Virus record (IMG/VR): IMGVR_UViG_3300046713_000096
Span: 1-64,000 of that record
DNA: 64,000 bases
Direction: 5' to 3' (one strand)
Source of the DNA: a virus
Below are positions 28,546 through 48,233 of this stretch, piece by piece. Position 1 is the stretch's first letter. Every line of letters begins with the position of its first letter. The notes under the pieces were generated by a model. The model was given only the letters and a program-made list of their open reading frames with translations. It did no database searches and was not told where the DNA came from. Position numbers and translations under genes: made by a program.

Positions 28546-30390
28546 TTAGTCCTCTCGTGCTGAGCGCCCGTTGAGCGCCCCTTCGATCAGTGTAACGTTG
28601 GCCCTCGCTTCGGCGAAAGCTTCGGCCGGGGCGTCGTCTGGCAAGAGCTCGACGACGCGCTTGCACCATGCCAGCGCCTCGGAATAAAGCCCGAGCTCAC
28701 CACAGACCATCGCCAGCCGCTGCGCTGGCAAGTACGAATAGAACGAGAGGTCGATCCACCACACGGTCACCGGGGGCTCGCCAATCGCCGTTGCCCCGAG
28801 CGTGTAGAATCGGCGCGCCTTCTCGTGGTCCTTCGCAAGGTACGCGATGTCACCCAACCATACGAAGTGTTCCGAACGCGACCAGTCATCCCGCGTGCAC
28901 TCGTGAAGCGCAGCGGAAGCTTCTTTCATGCGACCTTGGATCATGTACTCTTTGGCCAGCACGAGGCGCGCCTGATACTTCTGCACGCCGTTGTTGCTCA
29001 CGACGAGAAACTCTTCGAGCCGTTCGAGCGAGCGAGCGACGTCGAGGTCGCGCCATTCTTGTCCGAGGTAGAACAGGCTGGCCTCTGACTTGCGCGAAAG
29101 CCAGTCATCAAGTAGCGCGCTTCTGTTCTGGGCCTTGCGTTGTTTGGCGCGGGTCGCGCCCCGTTCGGGGTGGCGATCGTGGTACGTCTTGACCTGTGCG
29201 AGGGTCACCGCGAAGGTGCCCTCGGGGAAGTCGAGCACGTTGTGCACCGGGCGACTGAAGCGGATGTCGGATGCGTTCTGAAAGAGCCAAGGAAACGCCC
29301 ACTGCTGACCGTTGCCCTGACGTAAAACGAAGCCGACGCGAGCGGCCTTCGGCATGATCACGTCGAGCGCGCGCAGCACATCGTGTCCCGCGACTACGCG
29401 CTCGTGACCTTCAGTCATGAAGATCCAGTCGCCCGAGCACTGTTCGATGCACTGGTTACGGGCCCATGCGAAGTTGATCCCAGCCTCGCCCATGTACTCT
29501 TTGCACGCGCCCTTGCAGATCTCGCACTCAGCGATCGAGTGCCCATCGGGCGGGCCCATCGGGTCGCGCAGAAAGAACACCTTGTCGGCGTACGCTGCAG
29601 CGACGTCCCACGTGTTGTCAGTCGTGCGCGGATCGATGCCGACGACGAGCTCGTCGGCGAAGCCGCGCAGCGACGCAAGGGTCGGTTCGAGGTCGTGCCC
29701 TTCGTCGCGCACGGGCAGCGTCGCCGAAAGCCGATAGGACTTCTGCGCAAGCGGCCCGCACACCGCGAGCAGGAAGGGTCCGAGCACTTCGATCCGCACG
29801 TCGGCGAAGTGCGCTTGCAGCTCTTGCTTGAGCGATACCGCCGTGAACTTGACCGCGTGCTGTGGCTCTTCGTCCGGACCGAGCCGGTTATTCGGGACGC
29901 TGATCAACGCGCCAGCATGACGCCCCGTGTTATGGGTCATGGCGTCGAGCACGACGTTACGCGTATGCGACGACAAGTGCTCGAAGCACTCGGTCGACAC
30001 GAACAGATCGACGCGCTCGAAGGCGACATACAGGCTGTCGCTTTCGAGGTCGAGGCGCTGCGCGATGGGTCGACGTAGCCCGGCCCCGCGTTGCCGGGCT
30101 AGTTCGAGCGCTACTTCGCTGTTGTCGACGATCGTGACCTCGCCTACTTTGGGCAGGTCGAGCAGCTTTTCGGCAAGCACACCGACGCCGCCCCCGATAT
30201 CCATCACGCGCATGCCGTCGACGCGAACGCCGCCTACGAGCGCCTGCACGCGCGCGTACACACGCGCAAGCGCCTGCGCGCGCCACGTGTCTTCGCCCTC
30301 CCTTTCCCAAAGGTGATCCCACAGATCCGCCGCGTTGTGCCTTCGGGCTTGCTCTTCGTCGCGCTCTTGTTGGGCAATGGCTTCGACCAT
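28546..30390 (-). CDS. SAM-dependent methyltransferase + GT2 glycosyltransferase + TPR fusion
   Basis: VMDIGGGVG, ECFEHL, ISVPN; then LPVRDE, DELVVGID..TTDNT, FAWARN, GDWIF; helical TPR-like C-terminus. Confidence 0.85.
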   Translation of the reverse strand: MVEAIAQQERDEEQARRHNAADLWDHLWEREGEDTWRAQALARVYARVQALVGGVRVDGMRVMDIGGGVGVLAEKLLDLPKVGEVTIVDNSEVALELARQRGAGLRRPIAQRLDLESDSLYVAFERVDLFVSTECFEHLSSHTRNVVLDAMTHNTGRHAGALISVPNNRLGPDEEPQHAVKFTAVSLKQELQAHFADVRIEVLGPFLLAVCGPLAQKSYRLSATLPVRDEGHDLEPTLASLRGFADELVVGIDPRTTDNTWDVAAAYADKVFFLRDPMGPPDGHSIAECEICKGACKEYMGEAGINFAWARNQCIEQCSGDWIFMTEGHERVVAGHDVLRALDVIMPKAARVGFVLRQGNGQQWAFPWLFQNASDIRFSRPVHNVLDFPEGTFAVTLAQVKTYHDRHPERGATRAKQRKAQNRSALLDDWLSRKSEASLFYLGQEWRDLDVARSLERLEEFLVVSNNGVQKYQARLVLAKEYMIQGRMKEASAALHECTRDDWSRSEHFVWLGDIAYLAKDHEKARRFYTLGATAIGEPPVTVWWIDLSFYSYLPAQRLAMVCGELGLYSEALAWCKRVVELLPDDAPAEAFAEARANVTLIEGALNGRSARED

Positions 30391-32133: not shown

Positions 32134-33330
32134 TCAGACACCCTTGCCGATGTTTCGCACCTTGACGATCGCGCTCAGCTCTTCGAACTGCACGTCGACC
32201 TTCGAGGTGATGGCGTACTGATTCACGCCTTTGTAGATGTCGCGATCCTTCTCGATTCGAACGTCGCGACCGATGCCCACGACGAAGTTGTTCTGATGCG
32301 TGAGCAGGATTTGCGGGCTCGAACGGTAGGTCACCTTGACGACCTCGCCGCTCGCGATGGCGCCGCCACCGTTGCGCGCGATGGTGCCTGCAGCTGCGTC
32401 GAGTACGTAGTCGGTGGTCAAGATGTACGCTTCGGTTGGCGAGGCACCGAGCTCGTCGACGTGCACCGTGACGTCGGTGATCGCGCTGTTCTTGAGCGCC
32501 ACGACAGTCGTACCAGTCAGCGTCACGTGCTCGACAGTCAGGGGCTCGAACTCCCAAAGGGGCACGGGCACGGCTGTAATCCCGAACGGGCCGGGCATGC
32601 CGCCGCCGCCCTGCGCAGCGTTGTCACCGAGCGAAGTGCCGCGCGTCGCCAACTTTTCGAGGTACAGCTGCCACAGGTCGGGCGAGATGAACCAGCGTAG
32701 CGCGCTACGGTTGCGCCGGAACTTCGTAGGCAACGCGCGGATCGCTTTGCTGAACACCGACAGGCCGATGTTTTGGCCGAGTGCGTCGACCACATTCGCA
32801 CTGTCACCGAGCAATGACCAGCCGTCGGACAGCGCAAGGAACGAATCCTTGATCGCGTCACTCGAACCGCCTTCGAGAATGTCGCTTTGCGGCACAGCCG
32901 GGCCGAGCTTGTTGCCGTTGATGTAGAGATCTTCGAGATCGTTCGCGAGCTGTGTTGCCATCAGGCGAATGATCGTCTCTTCGACGTTGTCGCCTTCGAT
33001 GTTCAGCTCGCGGAAGTTGTCGCCGATCTCGAACGGCACGATCAGCTCGTGCGGGGTGATCGTGATCTTCGACGTGGTGATCCCGCGACGCACTTGCGGA
33101 TCGACGCCCTCGGACTTCGGCATAGCGACGCGCCGACCGACGCCGATTTTGTCGATGTCGAGGTTCTCATTGCGGAACCGCACGATTCGCGCGTTGTCTT
33201 TCAGAACCGTCTCGTCGATCACGTAGTCGAGGAAGCGATCGGACTGCGCATCGTTCAGCTTGCCGCCCGTCGCGAGATTGTCCGCGACGATTGTGGCCTT
33301 CCTGACGAGCTCTTCGTTTGCGATGGTCAT
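32134..33330 (-). CDS. major capsid protein (HK97 fold, XkdG-like)
   Basis: 398 aa; GGKLNDAQSDRFLD, ANDLEDLYINGN, LPTKF, IRIEKD-like C-terminus; follows protease and scaffold. Confidence 0.9.
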   Translation of the reverse strand: MTIANEELVRKATIVADNLATGGKLNDAQSDRFLDYVIDETVLKDNARIVRFRNENLDIDKIGVGRRVAMPKSEGVDPQVRRGITTSKITITPHELIVPFEIGDNFRELNIEGDNVEETIIRLMATQLANDLEDLYINGNKLGPAVPQSDILEGGSSDAIKDSFLALSDGWSLLGDSANVVDALGQNIGLSVFSKAIRALPTKFRRNRSALRWFISPDLWQLYLEKLATRGTSLGDNAAQGGGGMPGPFGITAVPVPLWEFEPLTVEHVTLTGTTVVALKNSAITDVTVHVDELGASPTEAYILTTDYVLDAAAGTIARNGGGAIASGEVVKVTYRSSPQILLTHQNNFVVGIGRDVRIEKDRDIYKGVNQYAITSKVDVQFEELSAIVKVRNIGKGV

Positions 33331-33390: not shown

Positions 33391-34359
33391 CTACAGCACG
33401 CCCTTCCACATGCTGGACTTCTGCACGTTGCTGTCGGTGCCACCTTCGTCGGTGACGCTGTTCGAGCCCGGACGGGCTTTCTCGATCGCTTGCACGCGGT
33501 CGACGAGGCCAGTCACCGCACCGGCCAGCGACTTGATCGTCTTCACGATCTCTTGATCGCTGTCCGACTTCATCGTCGGCACGCTCGGCTTCGTGTTGGG
33601 CTTCGTCAGGTCGTCGATGCCGCTTGCATTGCTGTGCGACGACACGGCCGGCACCTTCGAGTCGGGCGACGTGCCCGGGGCCACCGCTTCGAGAACCAAC
33701 TTCAAGATCTCTTGCGCGTCGGTCAGCGCCTTGATGCGCGCTGGCGTGAACGCAGCGGCCTTCTGCACTGCAGCCGCGAGTGCGGCCATCGTCAACGGTG
33801 CGTCGGCTTCGTCGACGAGCACGGCGCTCTTCTTCGTCTTGGCCGGCTTCTCTTCTTCGTCGTCATCCTCGGGCGCCTTGCCGCCCTTCGGTGGCGGGAA
33901 CGGATTCTTGCCCGCTGCCTTCGCGCTCAGGTCGAAGCCCGCCGCCTTGAGCGACGAGTAAACCTGCTTGCTCATCGCAGCGTCCATGCCGCACTTGGCC
34001 AAGACGGCCTTGAGGCTCTTCGCTGCCTTCTCGGTCGGCGTCTCTGTGTCTTCTTCGTCGTCGTCGCCTTCGCCACCTTCAGCCGGGGGCGCCGGGTGCT
34101 CGCTCTTGTTGGTCACGAGCTGCGTGATCTTGGCGACGATACCGTCGACGTGCGCGAGTGCTTTGGAAACGTCCGACGACTCGTCGGTGTCGTCGCCTTC
34201 GGCTTCGCGCTGTTTCTTTGCTGCAGCTGTTGCGCTCATTTTCTGATCCTCCGTGTCGTTCTTCACGACTAGAAATTCGACTTCGTTAGCGGGGCTGTCG
34301 ACCAAGCTTACTTCTTGAGTGTCGAGCCCAACGAATCTGCGCTTTGCGTCCTTCGGCAT
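33391..34359 (-). CDS. capsid scaffolding protein with N-terminal EVSLVDSPAN motif
   Basis: Start reassigned to ATG 34359 (RBS AAAGGGAAG); acidic low-complexity, coiled coil, ends KSSMWKGVL. Confidence 0.75.
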   Translation of the reverse strand: MPKDAKRRFVGLDTQEVSLVDSPANEVEFLVVKNDTEDQKMSATAAAKKQREAEGDDTDESSDVSKALAHVDGIVAKITQLVTNKSEHPAPPAEGGEGDDDEEDTETPTEKAAKSLKAVLAKCGMDAAMSKQVYSSLKAAGFDLSAKAAGKNPFPPPKGGKAPEDDDEEEKPAKTKKSAVLVDEADAPLTMAALAAAVQKAAAFTPARIKALTDAQEILKLVLEAVAPGTSPDSKVPAVSSHSNASGIDDLTKPNTKPSVPTMKSDSDQEIVKTIKSLAGAVTGLVDRVQAIEKARPGSNSVTDEGGTDSNVQKSSMWKGVL

Positions 34360-34376
34360 GCTTCGCTTCCCTTTTG

Positions 34377-34952
34377 TCACTTCGCGATCGGTACGACCTT
34401 CGCCTTGCCGCCGATCGAGAAGCCCGTGATCTTGCCGGCCTTGACCTTCTTCCAAACCTCAGCGTCGAGAACCTTGACGGTCATGATCCAGCTGCCTTGC
34501 TTGACGGTCTTTGCACCGAGCACGATCCCGTTGGGCGCGATGTACGACTCACACAGCGCGAGCTTTCCCTTCGGGAAAGTGGCGTGTTGCAAGCCGAGCT
34601 TCGTCGACTTGTTGATCCCTGACAGGAAGTCGTAAGCTGCCTGCTTGATGACGTCGGCCGACATGATGTCGCCTTGCGCGTCGACCACTTCCGGTTGCAG
34701 CACGACGCCGCTGACGGTCTGCTCTTCGTCGGCCTTGACGACGATAGCTACCTCGAACCGTTTTTCGACGCGCTTCTGTTTGTCGTCGTCGTCTTCTGCG
34801 TAGCCCTCTGCGTCGTCATCGGCTTCGTTTTCGAAGCCGGCCCGGGGCTTGGCGGTCGACACCGGGGCACCCGAAAGCTGGTTTCGGGCGCCCCGTTTTC
34901 CGCTGCGCTTAGCGAGAAGTGCGATCGACTCGACGTGCTCTTTGATTTCCAC
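34377..34952 (-). CDS. XkdF-like prohead serine protease
   Basis: GVVLQPEVVDAQGD, LQH, ESYIAP, GSW, KITGFSIGG. Confidence 0.88.
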   Translation of the reverse strand: MEIKEHVESIALLAKRSGKRGARNQLSGAPVSTAKPRAGFENEADDDAEGYAEDDDDKQKRVEKRFEVAIVVKADEEQTVSGVVLQPEVVDAQGDIMSADVIKQAAYDFLSGINKSTKLGLQHATFPKGKLALCESYIAPNGIVLGAKTVKQGSWIMTVKVLDAEVWKKVKAGKITGFSIGGKAKVVPIAK

Positions 34953-34996: not shown

Positions 34997-35152
34997 TCAG
35001 CGCGTGCGTTTCGTCTTCGGCTTCGTCTTGCCCGACGACATGGGCTTCGACGGTGTGCCGGACACGAGCTTGCCCGCCTTGTCGAACACGAGATCGGGCA
35101 GCTTGTCGGCTGCACTTTCCAGCGTTACGGCGAGATCGACGGGGTCTTTCAT
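34997..35152 (-). CDS. 51-aa ORF translationally coupled to MuF-GNAT (not in the supplied track)
   Basis: ATGA overlap with the MuF stop; MKDPVDLAVTLESAADKLPDLVFDKAGKLVSGTPSKPMSSGKTKPKTKRTR; GC3-rich codons. Confidence 0.55.
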   Translation of the reverse strand: MKDPVDLAVTLESAADKLPDLVFDKAGKLVSGTPSKPMSSGKTKPKTKRTR

Positions 35153-37038
35153 AGCTTCTTGATCCTAGCTGGCGTTTGGGACATTTCAAGGTGCGGCTGC
35201 GCAGCGCCGATGTCGGCGCGGTACTGGATCAAGAAGTCTTTGCCGATCCGCTTCTTGCCAACGACCACGCGCGAAAGATCCTGTGGTGTCTTGACGTTGG
35301 TCATGATTTCCGCCGCGGCTTCAGCACCGACTTCGCGCTTCAGGCGCGCCGTGAACTTGTCGAACACCTTCTTGATCTGCTCGGGGTTCGTCCATTCGAA
35401 ACCCGCTTTCGTCCAAACGTACTTGCCGACCTCTGCAGCTTCGAGCCGCACCTTGTCTACGCCGTGCCTCATGTAAGCGTCGATCTGCGCGTTGAAGATC
35501 TCGCGCCCGATGCCCGCGTTCTGCACCTTCTTGTCGAGGAAGAACGCGGCGTGATGCACGTTCAGCTTGCCGCCGTCGCGCGTGTAGTCGCGCCCGAATG
35601 TGCCGACGACGTTGTTCTTCTTGTCCATGATGCCGGCACCGATCGTCACGCGCCCGTGCTTCTCGCTCTCGCGCACCGTCACGACCATCCGATGATCGGG
35701 CGGTAGCTTCGCCTTCAGCCCTGCGAGATCTTCGATTTCGGCGTCTGTGAGCCGTTTGCCGAACACCTTTTCGCCAATATCTCCCAAGCGCGTCGAGGGC
35801 ACGCGAGGCTTCTTCGCCTCGGGCGGTATCGGGGGCGGTGCCTTCGGCGTCTTCGGCGCCTTCGGGGCAGCGTCTGGCGTCTGTGGCGTCTGCTTGGGTG
35901 CTGCAGCGCGCGGCGTCTTCTTCGGCTCGGCCTCGGGCGCTTCTGGCGCAAGGCGATCGAACGACATCGACTCGGTCGACACGTCGACCGTCGAGCGACA
36001 CCGGAAGTGGTAGGGCGGAAGTGCTAAACCTGCTTTCGCGAGGCCCTTCGTTCCGCCCTTCGAGAAGATCGCGCTGACCTTTTCGGCGCCAAGCCAGGGG
36101 TGCGCGCTCTTCACGTCCGCGGGTGTCTTCGCTGCAGACGTCCGAGCGATCTGATCGTTCGCTTGTTTGACCTCGAACACCTTGCCGTTCATCGTTCGAC
36201 AGATCGGCGTCGTCCGTTCGTCCATCGGATTGACGATTTCGTACTTCGTGATCCCGATGTCGCTGAACGATCGTATCTGTCCGCGCACGCGCGCGTTGGT
36301 CGAGACGTTTGCCGCGATGCCTTCGAAATATTTCGCGTCCGAGCCGCTGAAACCTTCGGGCACAACGACCTTGCCGAGCGTTCCGGCCACAGCGTCGCGC
36401 ACGACGACGCCCGCTTTGTCGTGGCCGATGCCCTTGATCATGCCGGGCTCGACCGCTTGCCTCACTGCATCGCGCAGATTCGCGCCGTAGTGCCGCCCGA
36501 TCCACAGCATTTGATCGGCCTGCAGGTCGGCGACTGCTTTTTCGTCACCGAGATCGAAGCTCGGCAAAACTTCGGCGACCTTGCGCGCTTTGGCTACCGA
36601 CTCGTCGCCCGCTTCCAACGACTCGGTGAGATTGGGCACGATGTACTGCAGCGACGCCTTCGTTTTGCCCGTGCCCTTCTTCCACCCCGCTTTTCGGGCC
36701 AAATAATAGACGTTTTCGAGGTCCTTTTTTGCACGTGACTCAACCTCGCTTGCCCATTTCCCCATCACTTTGTCGACCGCTGCGTATGCTGTCGCGAGGT
36801 TTCCCCCGCCCGACACCACTGCGCCGGCACGAGCGGCCGCTTCCTTCGCCCGATTGCGCCACTTGCCGAGCAAGTAGTCGCGCATTCGCATCTCAGTGCG
36901 TGCGATCTGCGCGACGTCGCTGATCATCAGCGCCTTTGCGATTGAAACATCGCTCAGCCTGATGACGTCGTGCAAGACGTCGAGCCGCTGCGCGCAGCAC
37001 TCGCACGCGAGCTCGTGTTGCAGCGCCGCGAGTCTCAT
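35149..37038 (-). CDS. MuF/SPP1 gp7-like minor head protein with C-terminal GNAT-like domain
   Basis: DERTTPICRTMNGKVF and LPPYHFRCRS MuF motifs; Pro/Ala/Lys linker; QNAGIG...VWTKAGF acetyl-CoA-binding signature; start reassigned to ATG 37038. Confidence 0.85.
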   Translation of the reverse strand: MRLAALQHELACECCAQRLDVLHDVIRLSDVSIAKALMISDVAQIARTEMRMRDYLLGKWRNRAKEAAARAGAVVSGGGNLATAYAAVDKVMGKWASEVESRAKKDLENVYYLARKAGWKKGTGKTKASLQYIVPNLTESLEAGDESVAKARKVAEVLPSFDLGDEKAVADLQADQMLWIGRHYGANLRDAVRQAVEPGMIKGIGHDKAGVVVRDAVAGTLGKVVVPEGFSGSDAKYFEGIAANVSTNARVRGQIRSFSDIGITKYEIVNPMDERTTPICRTMNGKVFEVKQANDQIARTSAAKTPADVKSAHPWLGAEKVSAIFSKGGTKGLAKAGLALPPYHFRCRSTVDVSTESMSFDRLAPEAPEAEPKKTPRAAAPKQTPQTPDAAPKAPKTPKAPPPIPPEAKKPRVPSTRLGDIGEKVFGKRLTDAEIEDLAGLKAKLPPDHRMVVTVRESEKHGRVTIGAGIMDKKNNVVGTFGRDYTRDGGKLNVHHAAFFLDKKVQNAGIGREIFNAQIDAYMRHGVDKVRLEAAEVGKYVWTKAGFEWTNPEQIKKVFDKFTARLKREVGAEAAAEIMTNVKTPQDLSRVVVGKKRIGKDFLIQYRADIGAAQPHLEMSQTPARIKKL

Positions 37039-38906
37039 GCTGCCTCGACGCTCTTGCGCCACATCATTTCGGCAGCCTTGTTCAGCGCGAAAAGCTTCTT
37101 CGCCACGTCGATCACGCTGTCCGGATCGTCTTCGTCGAGATCTTCGAGGTCGAGCACGCTTAGATCGAGCTCGTTCTCGTCACTGAGTAGGCCGAGAGCC
37201 TTCAACGTCTTGATCGCGGTCACTTGCTGACCGGGCTCGGTCGGCTCGGCCTGATTCTTGACCGCTTCCGCCATCGTCAGACTGAACGGAATGTCGGCCG
37301 GGAAGCCGCCTGCGAAGTCGGGCAGGTCGATCCCGAGAATGTCTTCGAGCATGTAGCGCGCGATCCGGGGCGTCATGCCGCCCGTTTTCTCGCTGCCACC
37401 GAGGATCTTCACGAGCTGCGTGTTATCGGTCGTGTTGGGCGTGTTGCTCTTGAACTTGTGGAAGATCACCCCCATCTCGGGGAAGATGAAGCGGTTCATG
37501 ATCTCGTCGAACTCGGTTCGCTCGGGGGAAAAGAGTTGCTCGTCGGCCAGCCGGCGCGATGACTCTGCTGTCGAGCGTGAATAGTCGCTCGACTGCCCGA
37601 CGAAGATGGGCGGCAAGCGGAACGAGCGCCGGATCTTGTCGTGGTTCTTCTCGCTGTAGTTTTGAAAGAGCGCATCGGCGTGCTGCTCTTTCGTCAGCGG
37701 CTTGATGTCGATCTTCACTTGGCCGCCGTCTTCGCCCGTGTCTTCGCCCATGGGCTCGGCTTCGACGATCAGAAACTTGCTGTAGTTGTCCGAGCCCTGA
37801 ATCTGCGACTCGACGAAGGACTCGATACGCTCGATCGTGCCCTGCGTCAGCTGACCGTTCGACACCGCGACGACCATTGACGGGATGTTGTTGTTCTTGA
37901 ACGTGATCCAATTGATTTCTTCAGCTGCGCGGTCACCGAAGATCGAAAGCAAGTTCCCGATGAAGCGCGGCATGCCGTACGGACTGCGCGGGCTATACAG
38001 CTTCATGTGGATGATCTCGCTCGCGCGATCGCTCACCTTGAGCTTGTCCTTCAGCTCGCCGTCGCGCTTCGACCAGAAGCGCGGATCGCCGAACTCTTTG
38101 AACCACACGACCTTATGCCCGCTGATCGACGACGTCGTGCGGCCCTGATGGATCGAGCGAGACTGCACGAAGGTCCGGAAGCGACGCATCACTCGCTGCG
38201 TTTTGATCTGCACGCTGCCGTCAGGCTGCAGCTCAGCGATTTTGCGAGGCACCTCGATCGCGTCGTCTTCGACCTTGCCAAGACGCATTTGATAGCTCGG
38301 AATGTGCGTGAACCCCTGAATCTCGTTCGCGCTGTTCCGGATCACTTCGAAATACGCATTGCCGGTCGTCTCAAGATCGCGTCGCAGGCGACGACGAAAC
38401 GAGATGAACGACTCGTCGGTGCAGTACGTGAAGAAGTTCGTCAGCGCGACCTTCTCAGCGTGCGAACGATCGAGCAACTTGCGCTGTTCCGGGGTGAGGT
38501 CCTTCGTGTCTTGCCCCGCGTCGTCTTCGGTGCGCGTGACTTCGTCGAGGCGCAAGCGCGAAACGAAGCGATAGCCGGTCGCCTCGATGTTCGTTTCCAT
38601 GGCTTCGATGCACTGATTCAGCTCGCTCGAATTTTCGGGCAGCATCGCGAGCGTGAGCAGGTCGAACGGCGGCAAGATCACGCGGCCCTTGTGGCCGAGT
38701 GCGCTGAATGGTTCCTCGGGCAGCGCCTCTGTCTGCCCCGGCTTGATGTTGGGATCGTCCGACCGACCGTTCGCGCCCGTGCCCTTGCGAACGTCGATCA
38801 CGAGGGCCCGCACCTTGTTCAGCGCGCGCTTGTTGACCGTGTTCGAGTGAGCTGCAGCGGCGCGTTGACTGTCGATCGAGAGAACGTTTGCGTTTGCTGT
38901 TGACAT
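37035..38906 (-). CDS. portal protein (PBSX-like)
   Basis: DLETTGNAYFEVIRN, EIIH..YSPRSPYGMPR, FRLPPIFVG. Confidence 0.92.
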   Translation of the reverse strand: MSTANANVLSIDSQRAAAAHSNTVNKRALNKVRALVIDVRKGTGANGRSDDPNIKPGQTEALPEEPFSALGHKGRVILPPFDLLTLAMLPENSSELNQCIEAMETNIEATGYRFVSRLRLDEVTRTEDDAGQDTKDLTPEQRKLLDRSHAEKVALTNFFTYCTDESFISFRRRLRRDLETTGNAYFEVIRNSANEIQGFTHIPSYQMRLGKVEDDAIEVPRKIAELQPDGSVQIKTQRVMRRFRTFVQSRSIHQGRTTSSISGHKVVWFKEFGDPRFWSKRDGELKDKLKVSDRASEIIHMKLYSPRSPYGMPRFIGNLLSIFGDRAAEEINWITFKNNNIPSMVVAVSNGQLTQGTIERIESFVESQIQGSDNYSKFLIVEAEPMGEDTGEDGGQVKIDIKPLTKEQHADALFQNYSEKNHDKIRRSFRLPPIFVGQSSDYSRSTAESSRRLADEQLFSPERTEFDEIMNRFIFPEMGVIFHKFKSNTPNTTDNTQLVKILGGSEKTGGMTPRIARYMLEDILGIDLPDFAGGFPADIPFSLTMAEAVKNQAEPTEPGQQVTAIKTLKALGLLSDENELDLSVLDLEDLDEDDPDSVIDVAKKLFALNKAAEMMWRKSVEAA

Positions 38907-38908
38907 GG

Positions 38909-40432
38909 TCAGATGACTCCCGGTTCTTTGCGGTTGCTGCGCCCACGGCGTCGCATCTTGCTCGTCGTAACGGCGAGATCTAGCGCGTCGAAAAGGTCTT
39001 TGTATTTGTGGTTGGGGAAGAGCACTAAGTGCTCGATCAAAAGTGCTTGGGTACCCTTGCGAAAGAACATGCGCTTGTCTTCAAATAGCGCGCTGAGCTT
39101 CCATGCGCGGGTGATCTTGTCCTTATCGGTCTGCTGACGACGAAGCCGAATGTCTTTGTCGACCTCTCGCAGCGTCTGGTATTGCGCCGCTTGATACTGA
39201 TTCGTCTCGATGCCACAGCGGATCGGCTTCCAGCGCTTGTAATATTCGAGAATCTTTTTCGTCTGCGCGCTGAAGCGCAACTGATCCTCGAAGTAGTCGA
39301 GCACGTAGTATGCGCTGCGATCCTTGTTGATCCCGATGACGACGATCGCGAACTTGTCGGCCTTCTCTTCTTCGCTGATCGCGAGGTCGACGCCCATGAA
39401 GATGCGAAGCGACTTCGGGTCGGGCCAATCTTCTTCGACGAGCTGTTGACAGTAGTCGTACTGAAAGATCTCGCCCTTCATCGCCTCCGTGTCGCACTGA
39501 TATTGGGCGTTGAAGATGATCAGGCCGGCGCGTTTCCTGCGCTCTGCGAACCACTTCGCGGGGTACTTCTTCGGCCACGGGCTTCGCCCCTTGCGATCGA
39601 GCGCAGGAATCACTTGATGGTGCTTGCGCAGCTCGCTCTTCAGCAAGTGCCCATACAGATCGTCGTAGTGGTAGCGCGTGCCCAGCATGTGATGCTCGCC
39701 CCGGTGCGGCACATTGACGTCGGGCGGTTCGAGCGTCGGCATGAGCGTATTGTAAAACCACGTCTTCGTCTTCTCGCGCTGCAGCTTCGTCGAGCTGTTG
39801 TCTTCGTCGACCAAGTCGTCGCTGATGATCACGTCGTAGTGCTTCGAAACAACCGTGCCCTCACGCCCGACGCACGTGACAGAAGCTTCTTTCGCGACCA
39901 CGGTGCGCGGCAGCACCTCGATCTCGCGCTCGTCCCATTTGCCGACGCGCTTGCTGTCGTAGTACTGACCGAAGATCTCTTGCAGGCGCGTGTTCGTTTC
40001 GAAGTGCGACTTGATGTTCTTCAAAAAGCCGCACGCGTTCTGCAGCGTCTTCGACGCGATCAGAATCCGTAGATTCGGATTCTTGAGCAGAAGGTGAATG
40101 ACCTTCAGCTCTGTGCACGTCGTCGACTTACCGGCGCCACGAAAGCAGAGCTGCAAGCTTTCCGGGTGCTCGAACTGCCACTGCAGCATGGCAAGGTGAA
40201 AGGGTTCTATCTTGAGCCCGAGCACCTCTGTCGCGAGAATGTCGATGCGATCGTTGTTGAGAACCTGATCGCGAATCCAGTCGTTGCGCAGCTTGTAACT
40301 GTTCTCGTAGTACCCGATCAGCTCTGCACGGTCTGCCCGCCGAAGTTGCTTCGACGTGGGAATGACTAGTGCCAAGTGCGATCGCTTTTTGCTGCGCGCC
40401 CGTTCCTTGTCTTTGGTTGCAAGCGCTGTCAC
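38909..40432 (-). CDS. terL: terminase large subunit
   Basis: RGAGKST Walker A, IISDD Walker B, GTRYHYDD, GVDLA and DLFDAL nuclease motifs; probable GTG start at 40432. Confidence 0.93.
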   Translation of the reverse strand: MTALATKDKERARSKKRSHLALVIPTSKQLRRADRAELIGYYENSYKLRNDWIRDQVLNNDRIDILATEVLGLKIEPFHLAMLQWQFEHPESLQLCFRGAGKSTTCTELKVIHLLLKNPNLRILIASKTLQNACGFLKNIKSHFETNTRLQEIFGQYYDSKRVGKWDEREIEVLPRTVVAKEASVTCVGREGTVVSKHYDVIISDDLVDEDNSSTKLQREKTKTWFYNTLMPTLEPPDVNVPHRGEHHMLGTRYHYDDLYGHLLKSELRKHHQVIPALDRKGRSPWPKKYPAKWFAERRKRAGLIIFNAQYQCDTEAMKGEIFQYDYCQQLVEEDWPDPKSLRIFMGVDLAISEEEKADKFAIVVIGINKDRSAYYVLDYFEDQLRFSAQTKKILEYYKRWKPIRCGIETNQYQAAQYQTLREVDKDIRLRRQQTDKDKITRAWKLSALFEDKRMFFRKGTQALLIEHLVLFPNHKYKDLFDALDLAVTTSKMRRRGRSNRKEPGVI

Positions 40433-40496
40433 GCAAACCTTCTTTCGCGCAGCAACCCGGGCCCTGCGTGGCCACAAGACCCGGGCCAGCTAGCGC

Positions 40497-46892: not shown

Positions 46893-48233
46893 TTGATGTC
46901 GAAAGCACAGGGAAAAGCACCGATCGTCGAGGCCCGCGCACGCGGCACCGTCGAATGGCGTCCCGAAAAAGGGGGGCGCTACATTGCCAAGATCAGCGCC
47001 CCCGGTGGTCGGCGCGTGTATGAAGAAATGGTCGACGACGATGGGGCCTTTCTGTTCACCGACAGAGAGAAGGACGAAGACGCGGCCCGTCGATGCGCTG
47101 CCGAGTATTCGGCAGCGGTGCGCAACACCGACGCGCCCATGCCCGACCGGCTTCGGTTCGAAACGACCGTGCGCATGTTCGGCGAAGAGTGGACGTCGGG
47201 AAAACTTCTGCTGAAGCACGGCAAGGTCAAACGGCTGAAGGCCAAGAAGTCGGTCGACGACGACGTGCGCCGACTCGAACAACACGTCTACCCGTACATC
47301 GGAACGCTGGCCGTCTCGGCCGTGACTGAGCAGCACATCGAACAAGCTTTCGCGAAGGCATGGGTCGCCTTCGAAAAGCGATACGGCTACGAGCCTTCAT
47401 CTGGTACGCGACGTCAGGTGTACATGGTGACGCACCGGCTCTTCGACCTGTCGGTCAGGCCCGGGCGCTTGCGCAAAGACAACCCGGTCGACATCGGGCT
47501 CTTGCCCGAGCCCGATCCCGAGAAGCTCTACAGCTATTTGTACCCGAGCGAGCTTTTGATGTTGCTGAAGTGCGTCGAGATCCCGATCGAGCGTCGCGTT
47601 TACTACGCGCTCGCGACGTACACCGGCCTGCGCAAGGGCTCGATCCTTGTCGCGTCGAAAAGGAAACGGGGCAACGCGAACGAAGACGATAACCTGATCA
47701 AGCGCTACCTGTGGTCGTCGATCGACCTCGAACACTCGACCGTGCTCAGCTTGATCAACAAGAACGGCAGACCACAACTTTTCGATCAGCTCGACGACAC
47801 ACTGCCCGGGCTCGGCTCGCTGATCGAGTTGCTTCGTCGCTGGCGTGAATACAGCGGATGGCCACCTGACTCGGCACCGATCATCGAGACGCTTCACTGT
47901 CGACGACGCAACGAAGCCGCGACGCTTCGACAAGATCTGCTCGTCGCTGGCGTCACGCGCGGCATACTCTTCTCGAACACCGACGAGATCCAAGCGCTGC
48001 GCTTTCACGACTTGCGCGCGACGTTCGTCACGTGGGCAAAGCGCGCAGGCAAACACGACGGCTGGATCAAGCATCGGACCGGCCACATCACCGACACGAT
48101 CATGGAACGATACAACCGCGCAGCGAGCAACGTCAGCGAGCTGCGCATGAAGCCCGGCCCGTTCCCTGACATCTCGCTTGCGATTCCCGAGCTCGTCGAC
48201 GTCAACGTGACTCGGCTGAAGCGTCGACGCTAG
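46893..48233 (+). CDS. int: tyrosine integrase
   Basis: TGLRKG, FHDLRAT, TGH and RY catalytic motifs; adjacent att site. Confidence 0.93.
   Translation: MMSKAQGKAPIVEARARGTVEWRPEKGGRYIAKISAPGGRRVYEEMVDDDGAFLFTDREKDEDAARRCAAEYSAAVRNTDAPMPDRLRFETTVRMFGEEWTSGKLLLKHGKVKRLKAKKSVDDDVRRLEQHVYPYIGTLAVSAVTEQHIEQAFAKAWVAFEKRYGYEPSSGTRRQVYMVTHRLFDLSVRPGRLRKDNPVDIGLLPEPDPEKLYSYLYPSELLMLLKCVEIPIERRVYYALATYTGLRKGSILVASKRKRGNANEDDNLIKRYLWSSIDLEHSTVLSLINKNGRPQLFDQLDDTLPGLGSLIELLRRWREYSGWPPDSAPIIETLHCRRRNEAATLRQDLLVAGVTRGILFSNTDEIQALRFHDLRATFVTWAKRAGKHDGWIKHRTGHITDTIMERYNRAASNVSELRMKPGPFPDISLAIPELVDVNVTRLKRRR

Follow-up and report, generated by a model that had tools for sequence, protein, structure and literature searches.

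A MuF head protein fused to a GNAT acetyltransferase and a co-inherited small peptide gene: a candidate phage-delivered effector and its predicted partner

The MuF toxins of temperate phages were defined by Jamet et al. (2017; BMC Biol, PMC5576092), for whom the small downstream open reading frame (ORF) was an argument for immunity; acetyltransferase or GNAT payloads have 0 occurrences in that text. MuF and portal fusions were read as packaged and injected effectors by Iyer, Burroughs, Anand, de Souza and Aravind (2017; J Bacteriol, PMC5512222), who found GNATs among the payloads and listed kinase, ADP-ribosyltransferase (ART) and GNAT as three of four protein-modifying payload classes for polyvalent proteins. 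The two GNAT families of that study occur with an ART in gammaproteobacterial prophages or on elements of the type IV secretion system (T4SS), and no partner peptide is given for them ('immunity protein' has 0 occurrences). T4 Alt, as summarised in PMC5512222, is a head-carried ART that is injected with the DNA and modifies host proteins, and Rac of phiKMV-like phages is a phage GNAT that shuts down host transcription (PMC7552054). Here we describe a gene for a MuF head protein fused to a C-terminal GNAT domain (P0001), and the gene of a 51-amino-acid (aa) peptide (P0002) that follows it, in positions 1 to 64,000 of the IMG/VR virus record IMGVR_UViG_3300046713_000096. This 64,000-nucleotide stretch is called the window below; the record itself is a free viral contig of metagenomic origin, 100,854 bp long, with a CheckV completeness of 98%.

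We lean, with moderate confidence, towards the interpretation that the MuF-GNAT protein is an effector that the phage delivers, of the kind called 'MuF polymorphic toxin / polyvalent protein', and that the co-made peptide would keep it silent until ejection. The fold of the domain, the exchange of payloads on sister MuF proteins, the co-inheritance of the peptide gene with the GNAT and the predicted interface between the two carry this interpretation, and the features concerned are the following.

35149-37038 including the stop codon, minus strand: MuF-GNAT fusion P0001, 629 aa, ATG start (ORF)
35950-37038, minus strand: MuF/SPP1 gp7-like head-morphogenesis module, residues 1-363 (TIGR01641, Phage_Mu_F, PHROG)
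35791-35949, minus strand: Pro/Ala/Lys linker, residues 364-416 (composition)
35152-35790, minus strand: GNAT domain, 213 aa, residues 417-629 (Pfam, AlphaFold2 model, Foldseek, VIA-align, conservation)
34997-35152, minus strand: gene of the 51-aa peptide P0002 (homologues, dN/dS, co-fold)

The original prediction, made by a model from the letters of the window, had proposed a MuF head protein fused to an acetyltransferase of ~210 aa, and the C-terminal domain does model as a GNAT. Pfam Acetyltransf_10 matches the isolated residues 417-629 with 28.2 bits against a cut-off of 23.6, and an AlphaFold2 (AF2) model, for which an exhaustive HMMER search of 1.84 billion representative proteins supplied an input alignment of 68 rows, reaches a mean predicted local distance difference test score (pLDDT) of 95.9 and a predicted template-modelling score (pTM) of 0.89. 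A phmmer search against PDB sequences gave nothing significant, the fold being recognised via the model: with Foldseek, 134 PDB matches were obtained at E<=1e-3, and the matches listed are all GNATs, led by NatD/Naa40, Naa50 and NatC. The best VIA-align match was NatD (4ua3_A; Z 11.0, root-mean-square deviation 2.7, 119 aligned residues), and many GNATs fell at Z 9.6-11.0.

Both motifs that the prediction had singled out, Q/RxxGxG and VWTKAGF, are present. The acetyl-CoA loop QNAGIG (residues 506-511) fits Q/R-x-x-G-x-G/A, the motif A loop that binds pyrophosphate; both of its glycines are invariant and the glutamine is near-invariant in 19 close members, and the consensus across 68 members is QGxGxG. 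VGKYVWTKAGF lies at residues 537-547; in this stretch, helix alpha4 contributes Y540 and W542, which do not vary among the 68 family members, and Y540 is a candidate general acid, by its likeness to RimI-type enzymes. A family-specific helical insert of ~60 residues (about 552-611), absent from the canonical fold, stands between beta6 and the last strand, and in it G599 is invariant and K600 near-invariant. The extreme C-terminus, EMSQTP, is highly conserved and forms the last strand of the sheet in the AF2 model. The idea that the conserved EMSQTPxIKxL tail stems solely from a ribosome-binding site or promoter of the peptide gene was set aside, as residues 616-621 are modelled as the final GNAT strand.

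The carrier part of the fusion is recognised independently. TIGR01641 phageSPP1_gp7 (NCBIfam) matches P0001 above its cut-off (46 bits against 39.65), Pfam Phage_Mu_F (PF04233) scores slightly below its own (26.9 bits against 29.6, E 9e-6), the precomputed PF04233 assignments of P0001 and many homologues are concordant, and several PHROG minor-head-protein families match with E-values of 1e-12 to 1e-14. The MuF motifs in P0001 are YEIVNPMD and PPYHFRCRS, and the module is encoded next to the portal. Seven Cys/His residues of the MuF module (C12, C14, C15, H23, C280, H344 and C347; window 35998-37005, minus strand) are invariant or nearly so in 12 homologues, a pattern (C-x-C-C, H, C, H-x-x-C) that suggests a metal site bridging the N-terminus and PPYHFRCRS. 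The Pro/Ala/Lys linker, predicted at about 35790-35950, was placed at 35791-35949; 36 of its 53 residues are P, A or K (17 P, 11 A, 8 K), and both its length and its sequence vary among homologues, with gapped and poorly conserved alignment columns.

A word-indexed search of 5.8 billion proteins for homologues found seven other full-length MuF-GNAT proteins (58-73% identity), together with dozens of closer or equally close MuF relatives of 356-420 aa (<=82% identity), which end at about residue 366, where the linker begins, and a further set of MuF proteins that bear other C-terminal extensions. At IMG/VR loci of the same lineage, the C-terminal module is PI3/PI4-kinase-like (L009, L016/18), an ADP-ribosyltransferase (L020) or an unknown module (L008, L011, L012, L031). 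As the closest relatives have either no C-terminal module or a swapped one, the module is dispensable for assembly and behaves as an interchangeable cargo. A small ORF of 51-87 aa comes after every extended MuF (the window, L001, L008, L009, L011, L012, L016/18, L020 and L031), whereas in the MuF-only loci the protease gene comes directly after the MuF stop codon, with no plausible ORF between (9/9 sampled). The small ORFs often overlap the stop codon of the extended MuF and differ in sequence by payload type, in that the two kinase-type loci have one common small-ORF family and the GNAT loci another. A Pfam search of the payload-specific small ORFs at the sister loci gave no known immunity family, the best match being CdiI_4 at a non-significant E of 0.059.

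Some of the sister loci deserve description in their own right. Orthologous MuF proteins with the kinase-like module (L009:1509-3605 and L016:776-2872, also P0047 and P0062) match PF00454 with 29-31 bits against a cut-off of 27.1, and the small ORFs of the kinase type, 76-82 aa long, are related to each other (L009:3605-3835, L016:2913-3161), so that these loci look like a head-delivered kinase with its own partner. At L020:4001-6859, MuF is joined to ADPrib_exo_Tox (E 1e-9) and a polyproline region, and an 80-aa ORF (L020:6859-7101) overlaps the stop codon. In some relatives, inteins (Hint / Intein_splicing) interrupt the MuF gene (L033:3840-6545, L034; P0062, P0107).

The exchange of payloads bears on the thought that the GNAT might act on the phage's own material in the producing cell or the procapsid, by acylating capsid, scaffold or portal or by modifying the packaged DNA in a Mom-like manner, with the peptide as a regulatory or targeting subunit. 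Such an enzyme would be tethered in the head beside portal, protease and scaffold, DNA-modifying phage enzymes of the GNAT fold exist (Mom, PMC7261163; PMC13219725), and the conserved helical insert with G599 and K600 suggests an unusual substrate. However, the closest relatives lack the module or have it swapped for a kinase-like domain or an ADP-ribosyltransferase, and a partner that is predicted over the cofactor cleft fits an inhibitor better than a targeting subunit, hence we regard an action on the phage's own material as quite unlikely.

The peptide gene had been missed by the ORF track and was proposed to start on the MuF stop codon (ATGA); it was found there, at 34997-35152 on the minus strand, its start overlapping the stop codon of the MuF-GNAT gene. 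The peptide consists of a conserved core of ~37 residues, with a consensus of roughly V-D-hydrophobic-A-x-T-L-x-x-A-A-D ... L-V-F-D-x-x-G-x-L-V, and a variable tail that is basic or acidic (basic in the window), and no family in Pfam, PHROG or NCBIfam matches it. Homologues of the peptide occur right after the GNAT stop codon in six distinct loci (L001, L083, L084, L086/87, L088 and L089), the GNAT domains of which are 41-58% identical to that of the window. The head-module context is the same as in the window in L001 and L083; in L084 the MuF is divergent and the gene that comes next is ClpP-like; the next genes of L086/87 are unrelated; and in L088 the GNAT-peptide pair (L088:1-1777) lies upstream of a MuF-like gene, an arrangement that probably resembles the portal-GNAT fusion P0084 described below. 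A small ORF after the GNAT stop codon is also found in the distant subfamilies L102, L106, L108/109 and L110 (GNAT 27-36% identical to the query used), where three overlap the stop codon by 4 nucleotides (nt) and recognisable pieces of the peptide motif can be seen.

Overall, the peptide gene stands directly after this GNAT in ~10 distinct metagenomic loci, at GNAT identities of ~27-58%. Conservation beside homologous fusions was the point on which the idea of a pair had been staked, and it is seen here, with the small ORF absent beside the closest MuF-only relatives. The TATGA overlap is present in 7/7 aligned loci (GNAT identity 41-58% to the window), the proportion of synonymous differences exceeds that of non-synonymous differences (pS > pN) in 21/21 pairs of peptide genes, and the ratio of non-synonymous to synonymous substitution rates (dN/dS) is 0.19-0.65 where dS is unsaturated. 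The peptide gene is thus under purifying selection, and since it is found at an unchanged place in other loci and has pS > pN throughout, it is not a chance ORF. An assignment of the 51-aa ORF to the protease/scaffold system was rejected, as it follows the GNAT before ClpP-like (L084), unrelated (L086) and MuF-like (L088) genes; being kept whatever the carrier or the next gene, it is a real gene that travels with the GNAT and not with the protease or one particular MuF.

The GNAT domain and the peptide were co-folded, as had been proposed at the outset, together with controls and on author-built alignments (7 rows for the peptide). The runs gave ipSAE values of 0.88, 0.86 and 0.88 against 0.01 for the best of three controls; the ipSAE mark is reached by 58/80 solved complexes and 2/110 mismatched pairs, a rough guide here, as the alignments are author-built. 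At least 90% of the contacts are common to the runs, and the pLDDT of the partner is 75-78. Residues 1-37 of the peptide, which are its conserved core, are in contact in the model, and the tail makes no contacts. In domain numbering (add 416 for the full protein), the GNAT is predicted to be contacted at 61-65 and 99, at 82-88 (end of beta4), at 90-96 (the Q-x-x-G-x-G loop), at 118-122 (end of beta5), at 124-129 (alpha4, including Y124 and W126), at 154-184 (the helical insert, including K184) and at the C-terminal 211 and 213. In the GNAT fold, beta4, the loop after it, beta5 and alpha4 make up the acetyl-CoA site, therefore the peptide is predicted to lie over the cofactor/active-site cleft. 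The model supports binding, short of proof, and predicts a position rather than an effect.

A contact can be read in more than one way, and the peptide might be an obligatory structural or activating subunit, a chaperone for folding or packaging, or a substrate, or else the GNAT might be a catalytically dead binding module. Nat enzymes are among the top structural matches, and eukaryotic Nat enzymes require auxiliary subunits; the co-fold shows contact and not effect, and the tandem repeats of the domain in giant proteins (see below) could mean a binding role. Yet the peptide is predicted to touch the Q-x-x-G-x-G loop, the ends of beta4 and beta5, and alpha4, the elements that hold acetyl-CoA in GNATs, and the family-wide conservation of the cofactor motifs speaks against a dead domain in particular. 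Taken together, these possibilities appear very unlikely to us.

Searched alone with HMMER, the GNAT domain matches 1,099 representative clusters at E<=1e-3, of which 178 reach E<=1e-10, usually as the C-terminal part of proteins of 400-1,000 aa. A Pfam scan of 128 family representatives found Phage_Mu_F in 55, Portal_Mu in one, PemK/MazF in three, an ART in one, topoisomerase IB in one and inteins in three. The Portal_Mu case is P0084 (968 aa), a fusion of a GNAT of this family to a Mu-type portal (Portal_Mu E 3e-49); with the MuF fusions and P0084/L088, the head-internal carriers of the payload number at least two. Giant proteins (2,000-7,600 aa) hold 3-9 GNAT copies; nine tandem copies were counted in P0074 (7601 aa), six in P0081 (3212 aa) and four in P0090 (1961 aa). 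The two giants scanned with Pfam, P0081 and P0090, also contain Abhydrolase_8 and a Gln_amidase papain-fold toxin domain. In BFVD, the best matches are to C-terminal portions of phage proteins that are uncharacterised (TM 0.5-0.66 across the whole domain), among them proteins of the Bacillus phages JL and CP-51 and one that bears the annotation 'Phage head morphogenesis domain'. When the GNAT domain and the whole of P0001 were searched by tblastn against 50,697 GenBank phage records, remote MuF matches and no GNAT match were obtained, so that, by this search, no cultured phage has a close relative of the GNAT. A profile scan of genome contigs gave a single distant match (23% identity, in a Lichenihabitans metagenome-assembled genome), a degenerate DNA pattern for VGxYVWxKxGF hit only the contig of L001 in IMG/VR, and the ESM Atlas returned only unnamed or weakly GNAT-labelled clusters.

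The effector interpretation draws on this spread, because the family often rides on head-internal carriers (the 55 of 128 with Phage_Mu_F and the one with Portal_Mu) and also occurs with the toxin domains Gln_amidase, PemK/MazF and ART, and it draws on the literature, because MuF and portal fusions have been read as injected effectors (PMC5512222) and the small downstream ORFs as immunity genes (PMC5576092). The MuF/gp7 module would serve as a capsid-internal carrier at the portal, and the Pro/Ala/Lys stretch as a flexible tether to the GNAT acyltransferase, which would be catalytically competent. The enzyme would be built into the head, exit with the DNA and acylate a target in the host as soon as infection begins. 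The peptide would be made in step with the fusion via the ATGA overlap, and its core would bind across beta4, beta5, the Q-x-x-G-x-G loop, alpha4 and the helical insert, so that the enzyme is silent in the producing cell. As a non-covalent plug, it would be lost when the protein unfolds through the portal/tail channel, and the enzyme would be on in the new host. A bolder version, which holds that there is a large undescribed family of capsid-carried GNAT effectors on MuF and portal proteins in many uncultured phages, that a plug peptide of ~35 residues is stripped mechanically in the tail as an ejection-triggered switch, and that the target is a component of host defence or translation for which such control would be a novelty, is put forward as a tentative and rather doubtful proposal.

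Several points weigh against the effector interpretation. The predicted interface is silent on inhibition; a peptide that binds might just as well be an activator, chaperone or substrate. The calibration of the co-fold is only rough, with a peptide alignment of 7 rows. Up to nine tandem GNAT copies are unusual for an enzyme. The VIA-align scores fail to separate protein acetyltransferases, tRNA-acetylating toxins and other GNATs: GCN5, Elp3, RimI, TacT1 (Z 9.8), AtaT (9.7) and KacT (9.7) are within one Z unit of each other, and the three toxins are level with dozens of other GNATs (Z 9.6-11.0). As the scores do not split substrate classes, the acylation target is a guess, with a protein lysine or N-terminus as the first and aminoacyl-tRNA as the second. 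The original prediction had named TacT/AtaT as GNAT toxins that acetylate aminoacyl-tRNA; toxin GNATs are among the structural matches, but the tied scores favour an acetylation of tRNA in their manner no more than one of proteins. Finally, a coupled 'immunity' gene in the late operon would leave lysogens unprotected because it would be silent in them, and the only sign of a promoter of its own is a single weak match to the consensus. This is a sigma-70-like match, TTGAAA-16-TAGGAT, at 35162-35189 on the minus strand, in the 3' end of the GNAT gene and ending 9 nt before the ATG of the peptide gene; one was found against 0.4 expected in shuffles, and conserved (A/D)-(K/R)-I codons account in part for its -10-like hexamer. 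Such a site could yield a nearly leaderless peptide transcript independent of the late operon.

Another reading is a toxin for competition between bacteria, as strictly meant by Jamet et al.: a growth-arresting GNAT, for example an aminoacyl-tRNA acetylase like TacT/AtaT, which virions would deliver to non-lysogenic competitors and against which the peptide would protect lysogens and the producer. Such a toxin would not serve the infecting phage itself in host takeover or anti-defence. MuF toxins are defined by payload polymorphism combined with a small ORF specific to the payload (PMC5576092); the structural matches include TacT1, AtaT and KacT (Z 9.7-9.8), whose antitoxins likewise work via a short peptide; the family co-occurs with PemK/MazF and glutamine-deamidase toxin domains; and the promoter-like site, weak as it is, stands just before the peptide ATG. 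On the other side, these toxin GNATs score no higher than NatD, GCN5, Elp3 and RimI, and expression in lysogens is made less likely by the arrangement of the peptide, which lacks a DNA-binding domain, lies downstream and is translationally coupled to the gene of a late structural protein. The integrase-like ORF stays below the Pfam cut-offs and makes a temperate phage plausible at most, and we consider a competition toxin in this strict sense unlikely.

The whole feature is on the minus strand of the window, where the MuF-GNAT gene comes next after the portal gene in a head module of the order TerL (large terminase)-portal-MuF/GNAT-peptide-protease-scaffold-capsid. The neighbouring genes are as follows.

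38909-40477, minus strand: large terminase (Terminase_6C)
37035-38906, minus strand: portal (Pfam Phage_portal, E 1.5e-16, 61 bits against a cut-off of 39.1)
34377-34952, minus strand: XkdF-type prohead serine protease (Peptidase_S78_2, E 7.4e-30)
33391-34455, minus strand: acidic scaffold-like protein
32134-33330, minus strand: presumed major capsid protein

Two ATGA stop/start overlaps chain the portal, MuF-GNAT and peptide genes, the first of them, between portal stop and MuF-GNAT start, being at 37035-37038. An alternative upstream GTG at 37062 would give a protein of 637 aa; the ATG start is used in all homologues. From the end of the peptide gene to the protease gene there are 44 nt, and the GNAT and the peptide gene are each present in a single copy in the phage genome. 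Judging from the tail sheath and the tape-measure protein that it encodes, the phage has a contractile tail. An integrase-like ORF at 46893-48233 on the plus strand scores below the cut-offs (Phage_integrase 21.2 bits against 27.1; Phage_int_M 19.8 bits), and a temperate lifestyle is therefore no more than plausible. In the structural module, a 614-aa ORF (28546-30390, minus strand) combines an S-adenosylmethionine (SAM)-dependent methyltransferase, a marginal match to a family 2 glycosyltransferase (GT2) and tetratricopeptide (TPR) repeats, according to Pfam.

Phage proteins that are co-injected with the DNA act before phage gene expression and are therefore prime candidates for counter-defence and host takeover. 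To our knowledge, few of them have been characterised beyond T4 Alt, P1 Dar and the N4 virion RNA polymerase (vRNAP). The locus offers a compact pair, an enzyme of 213 aa and a peptide of 51 aa, for which a specific interface is predicted, and the comparative rule is clean, with no small ORF in the closest MuF-only relatives and an own partner for each payload type. As the GNAT family is widespread, one biochemical result would annotate many phage genes, and a natural peptide that blocks a GNAT cofactor site would, if true, be a useful tool.

Whether the fusion had been described before was left undecided by the original prediction. The general idea is in print (PMC5512222), whereas no description of this GNAT family or of its peptide partner was found in the literature searched; the family as a habitual passenger of MuF and portal proteins, its dedicated peptide and the predicted plug of the cofactor site appear to be new. 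Unlike the present enzyme, T4 Alt is an ART that is targeted to the head by another route and has no plug peptide, and Rac is soluble, newly expressed and not a virion component, also without a plug peptide.

The type II toxin-antitoxin systems TacAT, AtaRT and KacAT likewise pair a GNAT with a short partner stretch, and their structures (PDB 7ak8, 6gtq, 5zgn) are among the structural matches. The short antitoxin segments, in TacA and AtaR, are understood to act at the cofactor/active-site cleft, where they silence the GNAT toxin. The antitoxin there has an N-terminal ribbon-helix-helix (RHH) domain, is encoded upstream and autoregulates, while the partner here is a free peptide of 40-67 aa without a DNA-binding domain, encoded downstream and inside a late structural operon. 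The GNAT, in turn, is fused to a head protein and has the helical insert of ~60 residues, and its similarity to the toxin GNATs (Z 9.7-9.8) is no greater than to non-toxin GNATs.

Close in gene arrangement are the MuF polymorphic toxins, in which an N-terminal MuF module is also encoded after the portal, the C-terminal module varies among close homologues, and a small downstream ORF (<150 aa) accompanies the extended MuFs and not the short ones (PMC5576092). In contrast to these, the downstream ORF here is 40-67 aa long in most loci and its predicted site is on the cofactor cleft; the described systems belong to temperate phages, whereas the integrase-like ORF of the window is below the cut-offs. 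With the polyvalent proteins (PMC5512222), the locus and its relatives have in common the same three payload types, GNAT, kinase and ART, on sister MuF proteins, as well as the portal-GNAT fusion P0084. The family profile showed no kinship with mycobacteriophage Alice gp113, an exemplar of Iyer et al. and the only one compared, the hhalign probability being 0.4% on a single-sequence template. Unlike the polyvalent proteins, the fusion described here has the simplest architecture, namely one carrier and one payload.

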